Positions 28,260-61,407 of a DNA stretch of 64,000 bases are shown here, piece by piece (position 1 is the first letter of the stretch; every line of letters starts with the position of its first letter). Below the pieces are notes generated by a model, which worked only from the letters and a program-made list of their open reading frames with translations, did no database searches and was not told the origin of the DNA. The DNA is taken from NCBI RefSeq assembly GCF_036971445.1, contig NC_091470.1, forward strand, positions 189,720,001 to 189,784,000, given 5' to 3'. This DNA is from Narcine bancroftii. Lineage: Eukaryota. Position numbers and translations under genes: made by a program.

Positions 28260-30181
28260 TTAATCCACCTCCTCAATGGTCGGTCCCGAAGATGTCGCAC
28301 TCCCAGCCTGGGCACGACAGGACTCCCCTGGGGCTGCCCCTTGGTACAGTTTGGCAACGATGGGATTACAAACCTTTTCCAGCTGTTTCTGCTGGTGCTC
28401 AAATTCTTCCTTCTCTGCCATCTGATTTCTCTCCAGCCATGATATTGTCTGATTGCACGAGTCAATTACCTTCTTCTTGTCTTCTTCACTGACCTTACTT
28501 GCCAACTTCTCATCCTCCACGGTACTCTTCATGCTGAAGGCGTACGACTCCAGGGAGTTCTTGGCTGCAACTTTCTGCCACTGCATTTCATCCTCATTCT
28601 TGTACTTCTCTGCATCCTGCACCATTCTGTCAATTTCCTCCTTACTCAGCCTGCCCTTGTCATTGCTGATGGTGATCTTGTTTGTTTTCCCAGTGCTCTT
28701 GTCAACAGCAGAAACATTGAGGATGCCATTGGCGTCGATGTCAAAAGTCACCTCGATCTGCGGAACACCACGAGGGGCAGGAGGGATGCCACTCAACTCA
28801 AATTTGCTCAGAAGGTTGTTGTCCTTGGTCATCGTTCTCTCACCCTCATACACCTGAATGAGGACGCCAGGCTGGTTGTCAGAGTATGTGCTGAAGTTCT
28901 GTGTCTGCTTGGTGGGGATGGTGGTGTTCCTCTTGATGAGTGCTGTCAATACACCACCGGCTGTTTCCAGACCCAATGACAGAGCAGCAACATCCAGGAG
29001 AAGCAGATCCTGAATGTTGTCTGATATTTCCCCCGTCAGAAGAGCCGCTTGGACAGCTGCCCCGTAAGCCACTGCCTCGTCGGGGTTGATGCTCTTGTTC
29101 AGCTCCCTGCCGTTGAAGAAATCTTGCAGCAGTTTCTGGATCTTGGGGATTCGGGTGGAACCCCCAACCAGGACAATTTCCTGGATCTGGGATTTGTCCA
29201 ATTTGGCATCTCTTAGGGCTTTCTCCACCGGCTCCAGAGTGCCTCTGAACAGGTCAGAGTTCAGTTCCTCAAAACGAGCCCGGGTGATCGAGGTGTAAAA
29301 GTCAATCCCCTCAAACAGAGAGTCAATCTCAATACTGGCTTGGCTGCTGGAAGACAGGGTTCTCTTTGCCCTCTCACAAGCTGTCCACAGCCTCCTCACT
29401 GCCCGCTTGTTCTGGCTGATGTCCTTCTTGTATTTCCGCTTGAACTCCTCAATGAAGTGATTGACCATGTGGTTGTCAAAGTCCTCTCCTCCCAGGTGGG
29501 TGTCACCTGCCGTGGATTTCACTTCAAAGATCCCATCATCGATGGAGAGAATGGACACATCGAAGGTGCCACCACCCAGGTCAAAGATGAGAACATTGCA
29601 CTCACCCTTGCCCTTCTTGTCCAGCCCGTAGGCAATGGCGGCTGCAGTTGGTTCATTGATGACACGCAGGACATTGAGGCCAGCTATCACACCAGCGACT
29701 TTGGTCGCCTCGCGCTGGGAGTCGTTGAAGTAAGCAGGTACTGTGATAACAGTATTGGTGACACTGGAGCCCAGGTAAGCTTCAGCGATCTCCTTCATCT
29801 TGGTCAGCACCATGGAGGAAATTTCCTCTTGGTAAAAGGTTTTCTTCTCCCCCTTGTATTCCACCCTCACCTTGGGCTTCCCCGAGTCACTCAGCACCTG
29901 GAAGGGCCAGTGCTCATGTCGATCTGGACCATAGGGTCATCGAATCTCCTGCCGATGAGTCTCTTGGCATCAAAGACAGTGTTGGCCGGGTTCATGGCTA
30001 CCTGGTTCTTGGCCGCGTCACCAATGAGCCTCTCGGTGTCGTTGAAGGCCACTTAGCTGGGGGTGGTGCGGTTTCCCTGGTCATTGGCGATGATCTCCAC
30101 CTTGCCATGCTGGAAGATGCCCACACAGGAGTAGGTGGTGCCCAGGTCGATGCCAATGGCCGTTCCCTTGGATGCAGGCAT
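28260..30181 (-). pseudogene. hsp70: Intronless cytosolic, inducible-type HSP70 pseudogene
   Basis: ATG at 30181 gives [20 protein letters not shown]. Codon 43 is TAA (30055-30053) in place of the Tyr of TTPSY. A 1-nt deletion lies near 29914. The remaining 545 aa are open with [21 protein letters not shown] and the terminal [14 protein letters not shown] on the minus strand at 27934-27939. Confidence 0.93.
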
Positions 30182-40510: not shown

Positions 40511-41500
40511 TTCCTGATGCAGGGTCTTGATCTGAAACATTACCTTACACCTTTTGCATAATGGGGTTGTGGAGGAGAGGGGTGGCAAAGGTCAGAGTCA
40601 CAGAGTTTAACAGCACAGAAACAGGACCATCAGCCCATCTCCTCCATACCATACTACCCAGCTGGTCCCACTGGCCTGCATTTGGCCCACTTCCCTCCAC
40701 ACCTTTCCTAACCATGGTCCCTGCCTCTACCCCTTCATCCGGCAGCTTGTTTCACAGCACCCCCACCACCACCCACTGGCCCCATTCCTCTCATTTCTGA
40801 ACCACTCATTCTCTGTTTCTCTCCACAGATGCTGTATGACCTGCTGAGTGTTTCCTCCATTCCCAGTTTTATCTCCGTGTTGCTGGAACTGCAGTTTTTT
40901 GGGGGTTTATTTTCCTTTATAGCTCATCTTCTTCCTCTCCCTCACCCTCTCACCTCCCCACATTGTTCCTTCAGCCATCTGTCTCCGTTAACACAGCACA
41001 CCCTCTCCCCTCCACTCTTCCTGTCTCCCATTCCACTCTTCTCCATATTACCCTCTCTACCTCCCACCCTTTCCTCTCCTGCCTTGACTTTGCTCCCCTC
41101 TTTCTCCTCGCCTCCTCCCATCTCTCTACCCTCCTTCCCCTTGACTTCCTGCCTCCCCTACCACTCTCTCCTCGCCCTGCCTTTATTGTTCTCTTCTCCC
41201 CCTCTCCCTTTTCTCCAGAGTCTGTGTCTGGGGTGTGTCCCCAGGGTCTGTGTCTCGGTTCTGTCCTGGGGGGGGGGGTCTGTCCCCAGGATCTGTGTCT
41301 GGGGGGGGGGGGTGTGGGGTGACCCAGGGTATGTGTCTGGGGGGTGTCCCCGGGATCTGTGTCTGGGGGTTGTCGATAGGGTCTGTCTCTGTCCCTGGAG
41401 GTTGTGACCCGGGGTCTGTGTCTGAGGGTCTATGTCTAGTGGGGGGGGGGGGGAGGGGGGTGGTGTCGCCAGGATCTGTTACAGCGACTCCCTCATCCAT

Positions 41501-41740
41501 ACTTTCGATTTCTGTGATCGTAACCTCGCTCACACAACCTTGCCCGGCAACCGATGACGCGATATCGACTCTATTTTCTGATTGGGCTGATGAAGGTATT
41601 TTTGCAACAATTTTTCCCAGTTTCTTAACCTGTTCAGACTTCCTCTGCCCAGACACTAATGACGCTGGCGCAGCGCGTAGTCTGATTGGAGCTGCAGGTG
41701 CCGCGGACCAATCAACGTGCAGCGTGGGGATATAACTGCC
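41501..41740 (+). promoter_or_regulatory. MHC class I promoter: ISRE plus two tandem S-X1-X2-Y modules and a TATA-like box
   Basis: ISRE ACTTTCGATTTC at 41501-41512. Module 1: S GTAACCT 41520-26, X CCCGGCAACCGATG 41543-56 overlapping TGACGC, Y CTGATTGG 41578-85. Module 2: S TTAACCT 41625-31, X CCCAGACACTAATG 41648-61 overlapping TGACGC, Y CTGATTGG 41682-89. TATAA near 41731. Confidence 0.85.
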
Positions 41741-41849
41741 CGACCTCGATCGAAAGTCGCAGTTTCCCGGTCAGCTGCGAGCGGAGTTTGACCGGTCACT
41801 GGCGGAGGGCTCGTGAATTCGGGACCACCCAATCAGGGAAGGAGTCACG

Positions 41850-41898
41850 ATGCTGCGTCTGCTTCTGATGACCCTCCTGTGTGGGGGGTTCTCCGCAG
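41850..41898 (+). CDS. MHC class I heavy chain exon 1 (signal peptide MLRLLLMTLLCGGFSA)
   Basis: ATG downstream of the SXY promoter, hydrophobic 16-aa leader, phase-1 donor CAG|GTGGGT that joins in frame to the alpha1 exon (G|CC = Ala). Confidence 0.85.
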
Positions 41899-41990
41899 GT
41901 GGGTGAGAGATCAATGGTCAACTGGGGCTGAGCCCCGGGTCCGTGGGGAGGGTCCAGTCCGGCTGGACAAGGGGTGATGGATCCCGGTCG

Positions 41991-42300
41991 GGGGAGGGGG
42001 CGGGCACCCTTTCCCCACCAATGGGGAGGGGGCGGACACCCTTTCCCCACCAATGGGGAGGGGGCGGACACCCTTTCCCCACCAATGGGGAGGGGGCGGA
42101 CACCCTTTCCCCACCAATGGGGAGGGGGCGGACACCCTTTCCCCACCAATGGGGAGGGGGCGGACACCCTTTCCCCACCAATGGGGAGGGGGCGGACACC
42201 CTTTCCCCACCAATGGGGAGGGGGCGGACACCCTTTCCCCACCAATGGGGAGGGGGCGGACACCCTTTCCCCACCAATGGGGAGGGGGCGGACTCTCCTT
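41991..42300. repeat. 32-bp minisatellite (~9-10 copies) in MHC I intron 1
   Basis: Unit GGGGAGGGGGCGGACACCCTTTCCCCACCAAT. Confidence 0.95.
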
Positions 42301-42532
42301 CCCCAGCAATGGGTGAGGGGGGGGGGAATGGACACTCCTTCCCCACCCATTGCTGGGGAAGGAGAGTTGCCCCCCCATTGGTGGATGGGGAGGGGGCAGA
42401 CACCCCTTCCCCACCAATGAGGGGGTGGACATCTCTTCCCCACCAATGGGGGGCTTCACCGCCACTCACTAACTTGCTTGACAGCTTGGAAGTCACTGCC
42501 GCCACGCCCAAGGGCCCGAAGCTGGTGGAAGG

Positions 42533-42700
42533 GTGTCACTGCCCCTCCCCCAGCCGGGCCCCAGTCCTGGGTGGTCACCGCCCCTCCCCCAGCCAGGCCC
42601 CAGTCCTGGGTGGTCACTGCCCCTCCCCCAGCCAGGCCCCAGTCCTGGGTGGTCACTGCCCCTCCCCCAGCCAGGCCCCAGTCCTGGGTGGTCACCGCCT
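42533..42700. repeat. 39-bp minisatellite (~4 copies)
   Basis: Unit GTCACTGCCCCTCCCCCAGCCAGGCCCCAGTCCTGGGTG. Confidence 0.92.
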
Positions 42701-43244
42701 GTGAGAAACCCAGCGCACTTATTAAATAATCTCTCAGAGTCGATAAGCTAAGCGATATAACCTTTTATTCAACGTTCTTGCAAGAGCGGGTCTCCTTCAG
42801 AGACGACACACTCACTGATATTCAACAACCTTTTTATACATTTCTTTGTGTTAATAACCATTTCATTTAATTGGTTAGTTAACTGAGTAATTAATAGGTT
42901 AGTTTAACCTATCAAAAGCTGTTCCGCTCCTCGTTTTAAAGCCCGCCCTTGTTTACTCTCCCATTCCCATAATTTTTGCAATCCCAACTCTTATTTAATC
43001 TTATCATTTGGAGTGGTGCTTTGTCAGATGTTCCTGTTCTTTTGCAGTTTTTTTAATATATCAAGTTGCCCTTGCCTGCAATCTATTGCAGGAACTGTCC
43101 TTCCTTTGTATTCTAGCAGACACCCCTCTTCCCCCTTTTCTTCTCTAATGCCTCATCTCTGTGCAGCCATTGTTAACACTGATGATTGATGATTACATTT
43201 TTCTGAAACAGTACTTTGGATAATTCCCACACCACCCCTCCCAC

Positions 43245-43480
43245 TGCAGGGGCCGAGTGCTGGGAGTTGCAGCCGGCCCGCAGGAGCCGAGTGCTGTGGG
43301 TCGCCGCCGGCCCTCCCCCACAGGGGCCAAGTGCTGGGGGTCGCCGCCAGCCCTCCCCCACAGGGGCCGAGTGCTGGGGGTCGCCGCCAGCCCTCCCCCA
43401 CAGGGGCTGAGTGCTGGGGGTTGCCGCTGGCCCTCCCCCGCAGGGTTCCAGTGCTGGGGGTCACTGGCCCTCCCCCACCA
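43245..43480. repeat. ~40-bp degenerate minisatellite
   Basis: Unit CAGGGGCCGAGTGCTGGGGGTCGCCGCCAGCCCTCCCCCA. Confidence 0.85.
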
Positions 43481-43952
43481 AGGTCCAATGAAGTCATTGC
43501 CCCAACGCTACCAGAGCTGAGACTGGAAGTCTTCACTGCTCCCACTACCCTACCAGGGCCTCATCCTTGGATTCATCGGCCCTCTCGCCAAGGACCAAGT
43601 CCTGGGTGATTACTGTCCCTCTCCTACCATGGCTTAGTATTGCGGGGGGGGTGCAATACCCTTCCCCTACCTGGGCCTAGTGTTTGGGTCACCGCCCCTC
43701 CCTCTCCAAGGCCTAGGACTGGGGTTCAATGCCACACCCCAACCAGGGCCATAGCCTTGATGGTCACTGTCCCTCCCAGAATAGGCCCCAGTCCTGCAAA
43801 TTACATTACTTCTCCCCCCACCAGTTCTGATGCATTGGGGGAGGGGGGGGTCACTATCCCTTCTCCACAAGGGCATCCCCTCCCACACCATTGCCTCATT
43901 AGGGTCAACTTCCCACCCAACCAAGGGCCCATTCCTGGGGTTGGGAGGTTTT

Positions 43953-44230
43953 CTGCCCCTCCCCCACCAGGGCAGAGGCCGAGGAGTCACTGCCCCTCCC
44001 CCACCAGGGCAGAGGCCGAGGAGTCACTGCCCCTCCCCCACCAGGGCAGAGGCCGAGGAGTCACTGCCCCTCCCCCACCAGGGCAGAGGCCGAGGAGTCA
44101 CTGCCCCTCCCCCACCAGGGCAGAGGCCGAGGAGTCACTGCCCCTCCCCCACCAGGGCAGAGGCCGAGGAGTCACTGCCCCTCCCCCACCAGGGCAGAGG
44201 CCGAGGAGTCACTGCCCCTCCCCCACCAGG
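43953..44230. repeat. 37-bp minisatellite (~7.5 copies)
   Basis: Unit CTGCCCCTCCCCCACCAGGGCAGAGGCCGAGGAGTCA. Confidence 0.95.
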
Positions 44231-44290
44231 GTCCAATCCTGGTGGTCACTTCCCCGCCCCCTGCAGGGGCCCGGTGTTGGCGGCCACTGC

Positions 44291-44925
44291 CCCGCCCCCG
44301 CAGGGGCCCAGTGATGGGGGGTCCCGCCCCCGCAGGGGCCCAGTGATGGGGGGTCCCGCCCCCGCAGGGGCCCAGTGATGGGGGGTCCCGCCCCCGCAGG
44401 GGCCCAGTGATGGGGGGTCCCGCCCCCGCAGGGGCCCAGTGATGGGGGGTCCCGCCCCCGCAGGGGCCCAGTGATGGGGGGTCCCGCCCCCGCAGGGGCC
44501 CAGTGATGGGGGGTCCCGCCCCCGCAGGGGCCCAGTGATGGGGGGTCCCGCCCCCGCAGGGGCCCAGTGATGGGGGGTCCCGCCCCCGCAGGGGCCCAGT
44601 GATGGGGGGTCCCGCCCCCGCAGGGGCCCAGTGATGGGGGGTCCCGCCCCCGCAGGGGCCCAGTGATGGGGGGTCCCGCCCCCGCAGGGGCCCAGTGATG
44701 GGGGGTCCCGCCCCCGCAGGGGCCCAGTGATGGGGGGTCCCGCCCCCGCAGGGGCCCAGTGATGGGGGGTCCCGCCCCCGCAGGGGCCCAGTGATGGGGG
44801 GTCCCGCCCCCGCAGGGGCCCAGTGATGGGGGGTCCCGCCCCCGCAGGGGCCCAGTGATGGGGGGTCCCGCCCCCGCAGGGGCCCAGTGATGGGGGGTCC
44901 CGCCCCTCCCCTGCAGGGGCCCAGT
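44291..44925. repeat. 32-bp minisatellite (~19 identical copies)
   Basis: Unit CCCGCCCCCGCAGGGGCCCAGTGATGGGGGGT. Confidence 0.96.
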
Positions 44926-56325: not shown

Positions 56326-56586
56326 CCTCCCACTCTCTCCGTTACTTCTACACGGCGGTGAGCCCGGTGCCCGATGTCCCCGAGTTTGTGACGGTCGGAT
56401 ACGTGGACGAGGAGCCGATCGATTACTACGACAGTGAGACCCGGAGGACGGTCCCGCGGCAGCAGTGGATGGAGAAGAGTCAGGGCCCCGATTACTGGGA
56501 GGGGGAGACACAGAACTTACGGGGCGACGAGCAGGTGTTCAAGGCCAACATCCAGATCCTGGAGGAACGGACCAACCAGACGGGGG
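56326..56586 (+). CDS. MHC class I exon 2 (alpha1 domain)
   Basis: TTGCAG acceptor and G|GTGAGT donor, 261 nt. SHSLRYFYTAVS..PEFVTVGYVD..YYDS..PRQQWM..DYWEGETQ..ERTNQTG, with Y7, Y59, R84 and the N86 glycosylation site. Confidence 0.95.
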
Positions 56587-56622: not shown

Positions 56623-57020
56623 TCCCCCCCCCCCCGACACTGACGGGCCGTGTCCTCCCCCCCCCCCCCCGACACTGACGGGCCGTGTCCTCCCCCCCCC
56701 CCCGACATTGACGGGCCGTGTCCTCCCCCCCCCCCGACATTGACGGGCCGTGTCCTCCCCCCCCCCCCCGACACTGACGGGCCGTGTCCTCCCCCCCCCC
56801 CGACACTGACGGGCCGTGTCCTCCCCCCCCCCCGACATTGACGGGCCGTGTCCTCCCCCCCCCCCGACATTGACGGGCCGTGTCCTCCCCCCCCCCCCGA
56901 CATTGACGGGCCGTGTCCTCCCCCCCCCCCCCCGACACTGACGGGCCGTGTCCTTCCCCCCCCCCCCCGACACTGACGGGCCGTGTCCTCCCCCCCCCCC
57001 CCGACATTGACGGGCCGTGT
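56623..57020. repeat. ~32-35-bp minisatellite (12 copies) filling MHC I intron 2
   Basis: Unit (C)nGACA(C/T)TGACGGGCCGTGTCCT. Confidence 0.95.
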
Positions 57021-57027
57021 GTTCCAG

Positions 57028-57301
57028 GGGGTCCACACCTACCAGGTGATGTACGGCTGTGAGCTGCGGGACGACGGATCCATCTCCGGGTTTTGCCAGT
57101 TCGGGTGGGACGGGGACGACCTCATCAGCTTCGACAAGGACCAGGAGGTGTGGGTGACGCCCGTGACCTGGGGGCAACTCACCAAATACAAGTGGGACCG
57201 GGACACGGCCATGATCCAGGACTGGAAGATCTACCTGGAACAGACCTGTATCACATGGCTGAAGAAATATGTCCAGGCCGGACAGGCCCAGCACAAACCC
57301 G
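57028..57301 (+). CDS. MHC class I exon 3 (alpha2 domain); 5' junction 1 nt out of phase
   Basis: VHTYQVMYGCEL..FGWDGDDLISFD..LTKYKWD..YLEQTCITWLKKY, with TTCCAG acceptor and CCG|GTGTGT donor. Confidence 0.93.
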
Positions 57302-57311
57302 GTGTGTGGGG

Positions 57312-57535
57312 CAGGGGGGTGTCGGCGCCGGAGGGAGGGGGGTGTCGGCGCCGGAGGGAGGGGGGTGTCGGCGCCGGAGGGAGGGGGGTGTCGGCGCCGG
57401 AGGGAGGGGGGGTGTCGGCGCCGGAGGGAGGGGGGGTGTCGGCGCCGGAGGGAGGGGGGGTGGTCGGCGCCGGAGGGAGGGGGGGTGTCGGCGCCGGAGG
57501 GGGGGGGGGTCGCGGGCGGGGGTCGGCGCCGGGGG
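57312..57535. repeat. ~23-25-bp G-rich minisatellite at the start of MHC I intron 3
   Basis: Unit GTCGGCGCCGGAGGGAGGGGG(G)nT, about 8 copies. Confidence 0.92.
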
Positions 57536-57579
57536 TGGTGAGGGGGTAGGAGGACAGCACAAGGTGGAGGGGGTCTCCC

Positions 57580-60220
57580 CCTCCCCCCTCCCTGACACAT
57601 CTCCCTCCTCCCCTTCACCCCATTCTCCCTCCTCCCCATCACTGCCTCCATTCTCATCCCTCCCTGTCACTGACCCCCCCCCATCTCCCTCCTCCCCATC
57701 ACTGCCTCCATTCTCATCCCTCCCTGTCATTGACCCCCCCATCTCCCTCCTCCCCTGACTGATCACGCTCTCCCTCGACCCTTTTTCATACTCCCCTCCC
57801 TCCTCCCCTTCACTAACCCTCCCTCCCTCTCCCTCCTCCCCCTCATTGATCCCCCTCTGACCCCATTCTCCCTCCTCCATTCTTACTGACCCACCCTCCC
57901 TCCTCCATACTTACTGACCCACCCTTCCACCTCCCCCCCCACTGACTCTCCCTTTCCCTCCCCCTCACTAACTCTCCCTCTCCCTCATCCACTCACTGAT
58001 CCCTCTCCTACCCCTCACTGATTCCCCTTTCCCTTCTCCCCACTCACTGACCCCCCTCTCCCTCCTCCTCCCCCTCACTGACCCCATTCTCCTCCCTCCC
58101 CGTCACTGACCCCCACCTCCCCCTCCCTCGTCCCATTCAGATCACGCTCTCCCTACTGCCCCTTACTGACACCCCCCTCCCTCCTACCCCTCACTGATAC
58201 CCCTCTCCCTCCTACCCCTCACTGATCCTACTCCCTCCTCCCCCTCACTGAAACCCCTCTCCCTCCTCCCCCTCACTGACCCTCCTCCCCCTCACTGACC
58301 CTCCTCCCCCTCACTGACCCTCCTCCCCCTCACTGACCCTCCTCCCCCTCACTGACCCTCCTCCCCCTCACTGACCCTCCTCCCCCCTCACTGACCCTCC
58401 TCCCCCTCACTGACCCTCCTCCCACTCACTGACCCTCCTCCCCCTCACTGACCCTCCTCCCCCTCACTGACCCTCCTCCCCCTCACTGACCCTCCTCCCC
58501 CTCACTGACCCTCCTCCCCCTCACTGACCCTCCTCCCCCTCACTGACCCTCCTCCCCCTCACTGACCCTCCTCCCCCTCACTGACCCTCCTCCCCCTCAC
58601 TGACCCTCCTCCCCCTCACTGACCCTCCTCCCCCTCACTGACCCTCCTCCCCCTCACTGACCCTCCTCCCCCTCACTGACCCTCCTCCCCCTCACTGACC
58701 CTCCTCCCCCTCACTGACCCTCCTCCCCCTCACTGACCCTCCTCCCCCTCACTGACCCTCCTCCCCCTCACTGACCCTCCTCCCCCTCACTGACCCTCCT
58801 CCCCCTCACTGACCCTCCTCCCCCTCACTGACCCTCCTCTCCCCCTCACTGACCCTCCTCTCCCCCTCACTGACCCTCCTCTCCCCCTCACTGACCCTCC
58901 TCTCCCCCTCACTGACCCTCCTCTCCCCCTCACTGACCCTCCTCTCCCCCTCACTGACCCTCCTCTCCCCCCTCACTGACCCTCCTCTCCCCCTCACTGA
59001 CCCTCCTCTCCCCCTCACTGACCCTCCTCTCCCCCTCACTGACCCTCCTCTCCCCCTCACTGACCCTCCTCTCCCCCTCACTGACCCTCCTCTCCCCCTC
59101 ACTGACCCTCCTCTCCCCCTCACTGACCCTCCTCTCCCCCTCACTGACCCTCCCTCTCCCCCTCACTGACCCTCCTCTCCCCCTCACTGACCCTCCTCTC
59201 CCCCTCACTGACCCCCTCCTCTCCCCTCACTGACCCTCCTCTCCCCCTCACTGACCCTCCTCCTCCCCCTCACTGACCCTCCTCCCCCCCTCACTGACCC
59301 TCCTCCCCCCTCACTGACCCTCCTCCCCCCCCTCACTGACCCTCCTCCCCCCCCTCACTGACCCTCCTCCCCCCCCTCACTGACCCTCCTCCCCCCCTCA
59401 CTGACCCTCCTCCCCCCCTCACTGACCCTCCTCCCCCCCCTCACTGACCCTCCTCCCCCCCCTCACTGACCCTCCTCCCCCCCCTCACTGACCCTCCTCC
59501 CCCCCCTCACTGACCCTCCTCCCCCCCCTCACTGACCCTCCTCCCCCCCCTCACTGACCCTCCTCCCCCCCTCACTGACCCTCCTCCCCCCCCCTCACTG
59601 ACCCTCCTCCCCCCCCTCACTGACCCTCCTCCCCCCCCTCACTGACCCTCCTCCCCCCCCTCACTGACCCTCCTCCCCCCCCTCACTGACCCTCCTCCCC
59701 CCCCTCACTGACCCTCCTCCCCCCCCTCACTGACCCTCCTCCCCCCCCTCACTGACCCTCCTCCCCCCCTCACTGACCCTCCTCCCCCCCTCACTGACCC
59801 TCCTCCCCCCCCTCACTGACCCTCCTCCCCCCCCTCACTGACCCTCCTCCCCCCCCTCACTGACCCTCCTCCCCCCCCTCACTGACCCTCCTCCCCCCCC
59901 TCACTGACCCTCCTCCCCCCCCTCACTGACCCTCCTCCCCCCCCTCACTGACCCTCCTCCCCCCCTCACTGACCCTCCTCCCCCCCCTCACTGACCCTCC
60001 TCCCCCCCCTCACTGACCCTCCTCCCCCCCCCTCACTGACCCTCCTCCCCCCCCTCACTGACCCTCCTCCCCCCCTCACTGACCCTCCTCCCTCCCTCCT
60101 CTGATCCCCTCCCTCCTCCCCCTCAATGACCCCCCTTTCTCTTCCATCTCACTGACGATACCCTCTATCTCCTCTCCATCACTGACCCCCTCTCCCTTCT
60201 CCCCCCTCACTGACTCCCCT
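57580..60220. repeat. C-rich 19-24-bp minisatellite filling MHC I intron 3
   Basis: Core CCTCACTGACCCTCCT(C)n, homogeneous from 58265 to 60090 with degenerate flanks. Confidence 0.96.
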
Positions 60221-60223
60221 TAG

Positions 60224-60486
60224 ATCCCCCGAGGTATCCTTCACCTCCTCCGCCGATGGACGCCAGCTTGCCTGCAAAGCCACTGGCTTCTATCCCCAGG
60301 CCATCGACGTGACCCTGTTGCAGGACGATCGTGTCCTGGGAGAGACCCGGTCCCACGGGATCCTCCCCAACCACGACGGCACCTACCAGCTGACTAGGAG
60401 GGTGGAGGTAGACCCCTCTGACCCTGCCCAGTTCTCCTGTCGGATTGAGCACCGAGGTCTGGACGAGCCCCTCCTACTGTTCCTGG
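60224..60486 (+). CDS. MHC class I exon 4 (alpha3 Ig C1 domain); 5' junction 1 nt out of phase
   Basis: PEVSF..QLACKATGFYPQAIDVT..ILPNHDGTYQL..FSCRIEHRGLDEP, with CCTTAG acceptor and G|GTAAG donor. Length is 263 nt. Confidence 0.93.
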
Positions 60487-61016: not shown

Positions 61017-61121
61017 ATCGGAAGGCTGGCCCTCCAGTGCTGATCATTGTGGTGGTTGTGGTGCTACTGATCCTCGTGGCCATCACCGTCATTGGAGGTT
61101 TCATTTGGTGGAAGAAGAAAG
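61017..61121 (+). CDS. MHC class I exon 5 (connecting peptide and transmembrane segment)
   Basis: TGACAG acceptor, DRKAGPPVLIIVVVVVLLILVAITVIGGFIWWKKK, G|GTAGG donor. Phase 1-1 and in frame with alpha3. Confidence 0.9.
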
Positions 61122-61407
61122 GTAGGTCTGGGGGCAGCAGATTGGGACCACCTTCCCATCCTCAAACCCCCATCTCCTACTCCCCCTCCCTTCCTGATCA
61201 CCCTCCCTCCTGGAGGGACACTGTCTGTCTTGAGCCTTGTCCCCCGACCCCCAACCCCATCCGCCATTCTGCGCGGAGAGCATCAGAACAGACCATTCAG
61301 CCCACATTTTATCTGCTGTCCCTCCATTCCCCTTCAGTTTGGTCATCGCACCTCCAGTCATTCAGTAGCTGCTCATGAGGAGTATCTGCCTCCCCCACCC
61401 CTTCCAG

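Follow-up and report, generated by a model that had tools for sequence, protein, structure and literature searches.

A tandem pair of S-X-Y modules upstream of an MHC class Ia-type gene in the electric ray Narcine bancroftii

The stretch of DNA analysed here, called the window, comprises 64 kb from the electric ray Narcine bancroftii. It holds a cartilaginous-fish MHC class Ia-type gene and, upstream of it, two complete S-X1-X2-Y modules (41501-41690) that have the same order and orientation. The protein encoded by the gene is identical to P0010, which its source names as a class I antigen of this species. The following exons lie in the window, and the cytoplasmic exon is found ca 2.2 kb past its end:

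41850..41898, + strand: exon 1, class I heavy chain leader peptide, with a GT donor; 100% identical to P0010 residues 1-16
56326..56586, + strand: alpha1 exon
57028..57305, + strand: alpha2 exon; best solved match 6lup_A (E 2e-34)
60224..60486, + strand: alpha3 exon (C1-set)
61017..61122, + strand: transmembrane exon

Contigs of two runs from one study, guessed to be RNA, join exon 1 (ending at 41898) to the alpha1 exon across an intron of 14.4 kb (11 and 32 contigs). Contigs of these runs also cover 41744-41898, with no cover over 41474-41728. Because contigs can show neither a start nor its absence, the missing cover is not counted against a second start. The module pair is thus placed upstream of the gene start by the leader exon at 41850, while the exact start is deduced from a TATA-like element (see below).

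All of the exons are open, and the full-length NCBI model carries no low-quality label. When the assembly is spliced canonically, one extra G is found at the alpha1/alpha2 joint (57028), which is out of frame, and the frame is maintained at the alpha2/alpha3 joint (57301-60224) only if a phase-2 donor at 57305 is used. Both joints are located beside short homopolymer runs, and the extra G belongs to a run of G that is shorter by one in two paralogs. This G is probably an assembly slip, the alternative being a real frameshift. The peptide-anchoring motifs of classical class I molecules, which we take to be Y7, Y59, R84, T143, K146, W147, Y159 and Y171 in this numbering, are present in P0010. 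Among the best-scoring candidates, the window gene is the only copy found that combines open alpha1, alpha2 and alpha3 exons with these motifs.

The neighbours on the same contig are beta2m at 0.5 Mb, class II alpha at 1.65 Mb and two proteasome beta genes at 1.85 Mb, which are read as PSMB8 and PSMB9; the published linkage spans up to 1.9 Mb (PMC10751288). TAP was not located in the genome search, for which a stricter filter was used. Two further observations concern the window itself. The class I introns at 41991-44906 and 56623-60136 are full of GC-rich minisatellites with periods of 22-40 and up to 90 copies. At 28260-30180, on the minus strand, there is an HSP70 gene that lacks introns and whose beginning is disrupted by an in-frame stop and a frameshift; heat-shock-element-like words and several CCAAT boxes are found upstream, and it is likely a pseudogene.

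The promoter region has the following elements, in which identities to mouse H2-K and H2-Eb are given for the S boxes and invariant columns refer to four paralogous promoters discussed below:

41501..41512, + strand: ISRE / IRF-element-like site ACTTTCGATTTC, assigned from sequence; 8 nt upstream of the distal TAACCT
41520..41526, + strand: distal S box GTAACCT, class I type; 6/7 to H2-K S, 5/7 to H2-Eb S
41543..41554, + strand: distal X1 CCCGGCAACCGA, core GCAAC; 16 nt after the distal S box
41555..41560, + strand: distal X2 TGACGC, abutting the distal X1
41578..41585, + strand: distal Y box CTGATTGG, inverted CCAAT; 7/8 columns invariant
41619..41624, + strand: AGTTTC, a half ISRE-like site, assigned from sequence; abuts the proximal S box and is kept in L002 and L003
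41625..41631, + strand: proximal S box TTAACCT, class I type; 6/7 to H2-K S, 4/7 to H2-Eb S
41648..41659, + strand: proximal X1 CCCAGACACTAA, core GACAC; 16 nt after the proximal S box
41660..41665, + strand: proximal X2 TGACGC; 6/6 columns invariant
41682..41689, + strand: proximal Y box CTGATTGG; 7/8 columns invariant
41729..41736, + strand: TATA-like element GATATAAC, assigned from sequence

A sequence-only reading of this DNA had described two complete modules in tandem, about 105 bp apart and with gaps of 16 and 20-21 nt, and the coordinates confirm this. The distal module runs GTAACCT, 16 nt, CCCGGCAACCGA TGACGC, 17 nt, CTGATTGG, and the proximal one TTAACCT, 16 nt, CCCAGACACTAA TGACGC, 16 nt, CTGATTGG. 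Counted from a 14-nt X box, the X-Y gap is 21 nt in the distal and 20 nt in the proximal module, the S-X gap is 16 nt in both, and the X-to-X distance is 105 bp. The ISRE-like site follows the IRF consensus, and it is retained in the paralog L002 and gone from L003 and L004. The distal X1 sits within a near-palindrome, CTTGCCCGGCAAC (41539-41551), which has the form of an RFX-type site as judged by the RFX consensus. The spacings of the two modules (16/21 and 16/20) both agree with the rule for NLRC5-bound modules, S-X 16 and X-Y 20-22 (PMC4374748).

The module pair lies within a CpG island (o/e 1.0, 41500-41900), and inspection of 41300-41850 gave no enhancer A (NF-kB)-like site upstream. Judging from the TATA-like element, transcription would start near 41760, which puts the proximal Y box ca 70 bp from the start. 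In class II promoters the module is 50-100 bp from the start, and the proximal Y box falls inside this range. At the position of the TATA-like element, a similar GGGGATAAAC is found in L004, and the element is not kept in L002 and L003.

A comparison of the two modules with each other gives identities of 6/7 for S, 7/12 for X1, 6/6 for X2 and 8/8 for Y. Outside the boxes, the identity is 4/16 in the X-Y spacer and, ungapped, 3/16 in the S-X gap. The earlier statement that the boxes are conserved and the spacers diverged is therefore correct for the X-Y spacer, but the S-X gaps have not fully diverged, since their gapped score is significant against shuffles (p=0.0075). This is the sole significant case of four comparisons outside the boxes, the other three giving no significant sign of homology, and the evidence there for a duplication is thus thin. 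The residual likeness of the S-X gaps, together with the half ISRE-like site at 41619-41624, which is possibly a remnant of a duplicated ISRE, would nevertheless fit a common descent of the two modules.

Such a pair is not readily obtained by chance. When the 501-bp promoter was shuffled 20,000 times with its dinucleotides preserved, 112 of the shuffles had one or more occurrences of a loose X2-Y pattern and none had two, while the real promoter has two. Within the window, the full S-gap-X-X2-Y pattern is found at these two sites only. In the 3.33-Gb genome the S-X1-X2 pattern has seven matches, and a Y box follows in two of them, which are those of the window; since the pattern was built from these modules themselves, the count is a measure of rarity and not an independent confirmation. 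The X2-Y-X2 search of the genome gave nine matches; the three with a second Y are class I promoters, and the fourth such promoter carries a TGATGC variant. A loose X2-Y pattern has 119 matches in the genome, and as those listed (100) are mostly TGATGC and outside the MHC, a single match is not specific. Doubled X2-Y pairs in metagenomes were also considered (62 stretches), but the four with a second Y turned out to be tandem repeats of almost identical units that resemble neither S nor X1, and they were discarded.

We now turn our attention to the conservation of the pair, for which paralogous promoters within this one batoid genome were compared. Three relatives of the promoter are located on the same contig, L002 and L003 with 80% identity and L004, which aligns at the leader only, and both X1-X2-Y sets are present in all three. 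Over the four promoters, 22 of the 26 columns of the distal boxes are invariant (X1 10/12, X2 5/6, Y 7/8). The proximal values are 7/12, 6/6 and 7/8, that is, the distal X1 is better conserved than the proximal one. For the X-Y spacers the numbers are 5/17 and 5/16, and for the linker 8/39 (13/56 for spacer plus linker). When the window promoter is compared to its three paralogs, the identity of the boxes versus the X-Y spacer is 73/78 versus 31/49 for the distal module and 71/78 versus 28/48 for the proximal one (Fisher p ~2e-5 for each, with comparisons that share the window sequence and are not independent). Against L004 alone, the most diverged paralog, the identity is 24/26 in the distal boxes, compared to 9/16 in the spacer (p=0.009). 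Such a pattern is not what copying or gene conversion would leave behind, which argues that both modules were under selection. This constraint refers to the past, because none of the three paralogs is a whole, unbroken gene: alpha1 is frameshifted in L002, no alpha1 lies within 20 kb in L003, and alpha2 of L004 contains stops.

It should be noted that the S boxes are poorly kept across the four promoters, with 2/7 and 1/7 invariant columns. The distal S box is retained at 5/7 positions in L002, 6/7 in L003 and 2/7 in L004, and it lies at exactly 16 nt in the window gene, L002 and L003. The proximal S box has the 16-nt gap in the window gene only, with a gap of 13 nt in L002 and loss of the box in L003 and L004, and both S boxes are thus intact at 16 nt in the window gene only. 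The near-palindrome at 41539-41551 is present in the window, L002 and L003, while in L004 its left arm is lost and X1-X2-Y stay. The GCAAC core of the distal X1 is found in all four promoters. The distance between the modules varies over the four (105, 101, 99 and 97 bp), and the modules therefore probably act independently. A fixed helical phasing between them was considered and rejected, as the distances correspond to 10.0, 9.6, 9.4 and 9.2 turns, although three of the four genes are broken.

An unplaced copy, whose alpha2 is 91% identical to that of the L004 gene, clusters with the window gene in the alpha3 tree (99/95), separately from other rays. For dating the duplication, the trees of alpha1 and alpha2 gave no resolution, and alpha3 alone placed this diverged copy. 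With this grouping, the pair is shown for this lineage only, and it may be that the duplication is restricted to electric rays. A run under a second organism label was also considered as a conservation test. It is identical over 41516-41856 and also holds L002- and L004-like promoter pieces, and was set aside as uninformative. Four other runs, which may be the source of this DNA, were likewise left out of the support.

Other MHC promoters of the ray were examined for comparison. The beta2m (L047) and class II alpha (L036) promoters each have one module in the region around X2 (400 bp upstream, 300 bp downstream). They use the same X1-X2-Y grammar as the class Ia-type promoter, and differ from it in that the module is single and that a TAACCT S box at 16 nt is absent. 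The X1 core of class II alpha is GAAAC. No X-Y module was found near the leader of a divergent class I gene (L040:2560 / L038:9682 / L039:8316, G000:C5:190.35-190.38 Mb, + strand), whose alpha1 identity is 35% and which is probably nonclassical. Among the promoters examined, the doubling is hence specific to those of class Ia type. The beta2m promoter with its single SXY-like module (L047:9384, minus strand, G000:C5:190305884) is located within the MHC, with class I on one side and class II on the other. Neither a PF00969 search of the genome nor tblastn gave a class II beta exon, the latter in ca 380 kb around and beyond class II alpha (ca 180 kb beside the gene, plus C5:191.534-191.734 Mb), which may be due to a search miss or an assembly gap, and the class II comparison consequently rests on one alpha gene.

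The question of which coactivator the modules serve can be approached from mouse reporter assays (Ludigs 2015, PMC4374748), in which the X boxes of H2-K and H2-Eb serve NLRC5 equally. The S box was reported there to be necessary and sufficient for NLRC5 specificity, and swaps of the S box, not of the X box, switch the response. The class comparison made here uses one reference pair, the mouse H2-K and H2-Eb primers of the same paper. Both ray S boxes carry TAACCT as in H2-K, not GGACCT as in H2-Eb, and the distal GTAACCT, tested for the class II-type GGACCT, has the H2-K letters at the discriminating positions. The ISRE-to-S spacing is 8 nt at the distal module versus 6 nt in H2-K, and the proximal S box follows the half site.

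For the X1 boxes, the sequence-only reading had claimed that the two cores differ, and they do: the distal GCAAC is the core of mouse H2-Eb and the proximal GACAC that of H2-K. Its description of the distal X1 as class II-like holds for this core and is less clear for the whole box. Over 12 nt, the distal X1 agrees with H2-Eb at 8 positions and with H2-K at 7, and hence it hardly discriminates the class. Within the ray, it has 8 matches to class II alpha, 9 to the module upstream of PSMB8 and 10 to beta2m, which is the nearest, and the X1 boxes of beta2m and class II alpha also share 8/12. Rather than class II-specific, the distal X1 would thus more aptly be called a strong RFX half-site.

With somewhat better than even confidence, we favour an old tandem duplication of an ISRE-S-X-Y unit, in which both modules are likely additive class I (NLRC5)-type platforms. 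By analogy with mammals, RFX5/RFXAP/RFXANK would bind X1, CREB/ATF X2 and NF-Y the Y box of each module, and the TAACCT S box would select NLRC5 at both. An NLRC5 ortholog reported in the whale shark (PMC8455134) speaks for this reading. The proximal module, close to the deduced start, would open the promoter and position the start site. The distal module, coupled to an ISRE that is intact, would be an enhancer at very short range. It would raise the basal and the interferon-induced output and also widen the nucleosome-free region. An HLA-DRA module shifted to 80-150 bp from the start was reported to serve that start no longer (PMC2677874), and an enhancer role is therefore fitting for the distal module. 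The two modules would probably be independent and additive, not one rigid complex.

Some points speak for caution. The rules for the S box were worked out in mouse, and a ray may not follow them. The X1 cores have stayed different, with GCAAC at the distal module in 4/4 promoters, and the roles of the two modules may accordingly be unequal. The induction by IFN-gamma in a salmon cell line seemed not to require the enhanceosome (PMC7573153), which counts against the favoured explanation.

Another option considered is a division of labour, with the distal module recruiting CIITA and the proximal one NLRC5, such that class I is boosted together with class II in antigen-presenting cells. This elaborates the proposal of a dual-module promoter that possibly answers both transactivators, which is undermined by the fact that the S box decides in mouse and both ray S boxes are of the H2-K type. 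The two different cores, with the H2-Eb-type one in every promoter of the set, point to such a division, and orthologs of both NLRC5 and CIITA have been reported in the whale shark (PMC8455134). Moreover, as class II alpha of the ray has no recognisable S box at 16 nt, the CIITA of the ray possibly does not read S, and X1 could steer it instead. However, the mouse X boxes are interchangeable for NLRC5 (PMC4374748), the S box of the distal module is of class I type, and its X1 is nearer to beta2m and to the PSMB8-upstream module than to class II alpha. Overexpressed CIITA also activates ordinary class I promoters with a single module (PMC7866136, PMC7753138), and a second module is therefore not needed for CIITA to act. 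The reading with one module for CIITA and one for NLRC5 is thus weak, and we regard it as unlikely.

Next, the distal module could be independent of a transactivator, that is, a strong site for RFX, together with CREB and NF-Y, which would open chromatin or aid IRF1 at the ISRE, while the proximal module alone recruits the NLR coactivator. This would be in line with the near-palindromic RFX-type site in the window, L002 and L003 and with the sole full ISRE adjoining the distal module. In teleost systems, IRF1 has been proposed as the main driver of MHC induction (PMC7573153), and the nucleosome-free region of HLA-DRA comes mainly from the enhanceosome (PMC2677874). Against this stand the S box kept at exactly 16 nt in the same three promoters and the X-Y gap of 20-21 nt, spacings that matter for coactivator recruitment in mammals (PMC4374748, PMC4381081, PMC7753138), and also L004, in which the left arm of the palindrome is gone and X1-X2-Y remain. 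We find this scenario distinctly unlikely.

A broader version of the division, in which the doubled promoter is elasmobranch-wide and CIITA reads the distal module, with its class II-type X1 core and class I-type S box, while NLRC5 reads the proximal one, is very unlikely in our judgement. If it were true, a state before class I and class II promoters diverged in their coactivator specificity would be preserved, and in cartilaginous fish X1, not S, would steer the choice. That the distal copy is a relic, left over from a duplication or an abandoned promoter, and that the likeness of the paralogs reflects recent copying or gene conversion, is hardly probable at all: the paralogs sharing the module are indeed broken genes, the alpha3 tree does put the diverged copy with the window gene, and beta2m and class II alpha do manage with one module, but copying or conversion would have saved the spacers too, yet 13/56 spacer and linker columns versus 22/26 distal box columns are invariant, and the two modules differ in the X-Y spacer (4/16) yet agree in X2 and Y (14/14), which indicates that each has been kept since the duplication.

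Returning to the favoured reading of two class I-type platforms, the closest known system is the SXY module of mouse H2-K, which is occupied by NLRC5 (PMC4374748). It shares with the ray promoter the TAACCT S box, the S-X gap of 16 nt, the TGACGC X2, the ATTGG Y box at 20-21 nt and an ISRE just upstream of S, and its X1 core is identical to that of the ray proximal module. The ray promoter differs in having two modules 105 bp apart instead of one, in the GCAAC core of the distal X1 and in the lack of an enhancer A (NF-kB)-like site in 41300-41850. With mouse H2-Eb, a CIITA class II module (cf. human HLA-DRA), the ray has in common the distal core GCAAC and the Y box CTGATTGG. Unlike these, it has TAACCT and not GGACCT as S box and TGACGC and not TGATGC as X2, and the gene is class I. 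A second SXY module that serves the same gene as an enhancer is known from the class II S'-Y' enhancers (HLA-DRA, ca -2.3 kb; PMC2677874, PMC7866136). Those, however, are enhancers of class II or CD74 at distances of kilobases, whereas the second module of the ray is 105 bp away, in the same orientation and the same CpG island, and belongs to a class I gene.

The arrangement is thus a real and conserved variant of the known SXY element, second modules being known as distal class II enhancers. MHC class I promoters are described in the sources cited with one proximal SXY module each. A search of the openly accessible full-text literature found no report of a tandem proximal SXY pair in a class I promoter or of an elasmobranch class I promoter, and the main texts of PMC10751288 and PMC8010645 do not contain the term 'promoter'. 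The class I S box, the X1 core and the ISRE-S order are common to the ray and mouse H2-K. A second complete module with a different X1 core, retained under selection, amounts to a natural swap experiment, which bears on how NLRC5 and CIITA distinguish their targets on a shared platform. If the two modules are merely additive, they would represent a modest, lineage-level route to higher class I output.

Finally, some minor observations were made around the class II alpha gene. Its S-X gap (L036:4000, minus strand) begins with GCAAACT, the same seven letters as the gap of mouse H2-Eb, with no GGACCT before it; this is possibly an overlooked conserved class II element. Upstream of the class II alpha promoter, at distances of 22.5 and 35 kb, there are two further X1-X2-Y modules, L054:6528 and L055:9280 (both minus strand; G000:C5:191440527 and 191453279). 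They have the orientation of class II alpha, with no leader seen downstream, and the second is followed by IRF-like and NF-kB-like words, which makes the two candidates for distal S'-Y' enhancers. The module upstream of PSMB8 (L082:603, minus strand, G000:C5:191614602) is X1-X2-Y-like, with CCCGGCAATTGG TGACTC, 14 nt and CCTATTGG, and lies ca 1.2 kb upstream of the likely PSMB8 start codon.
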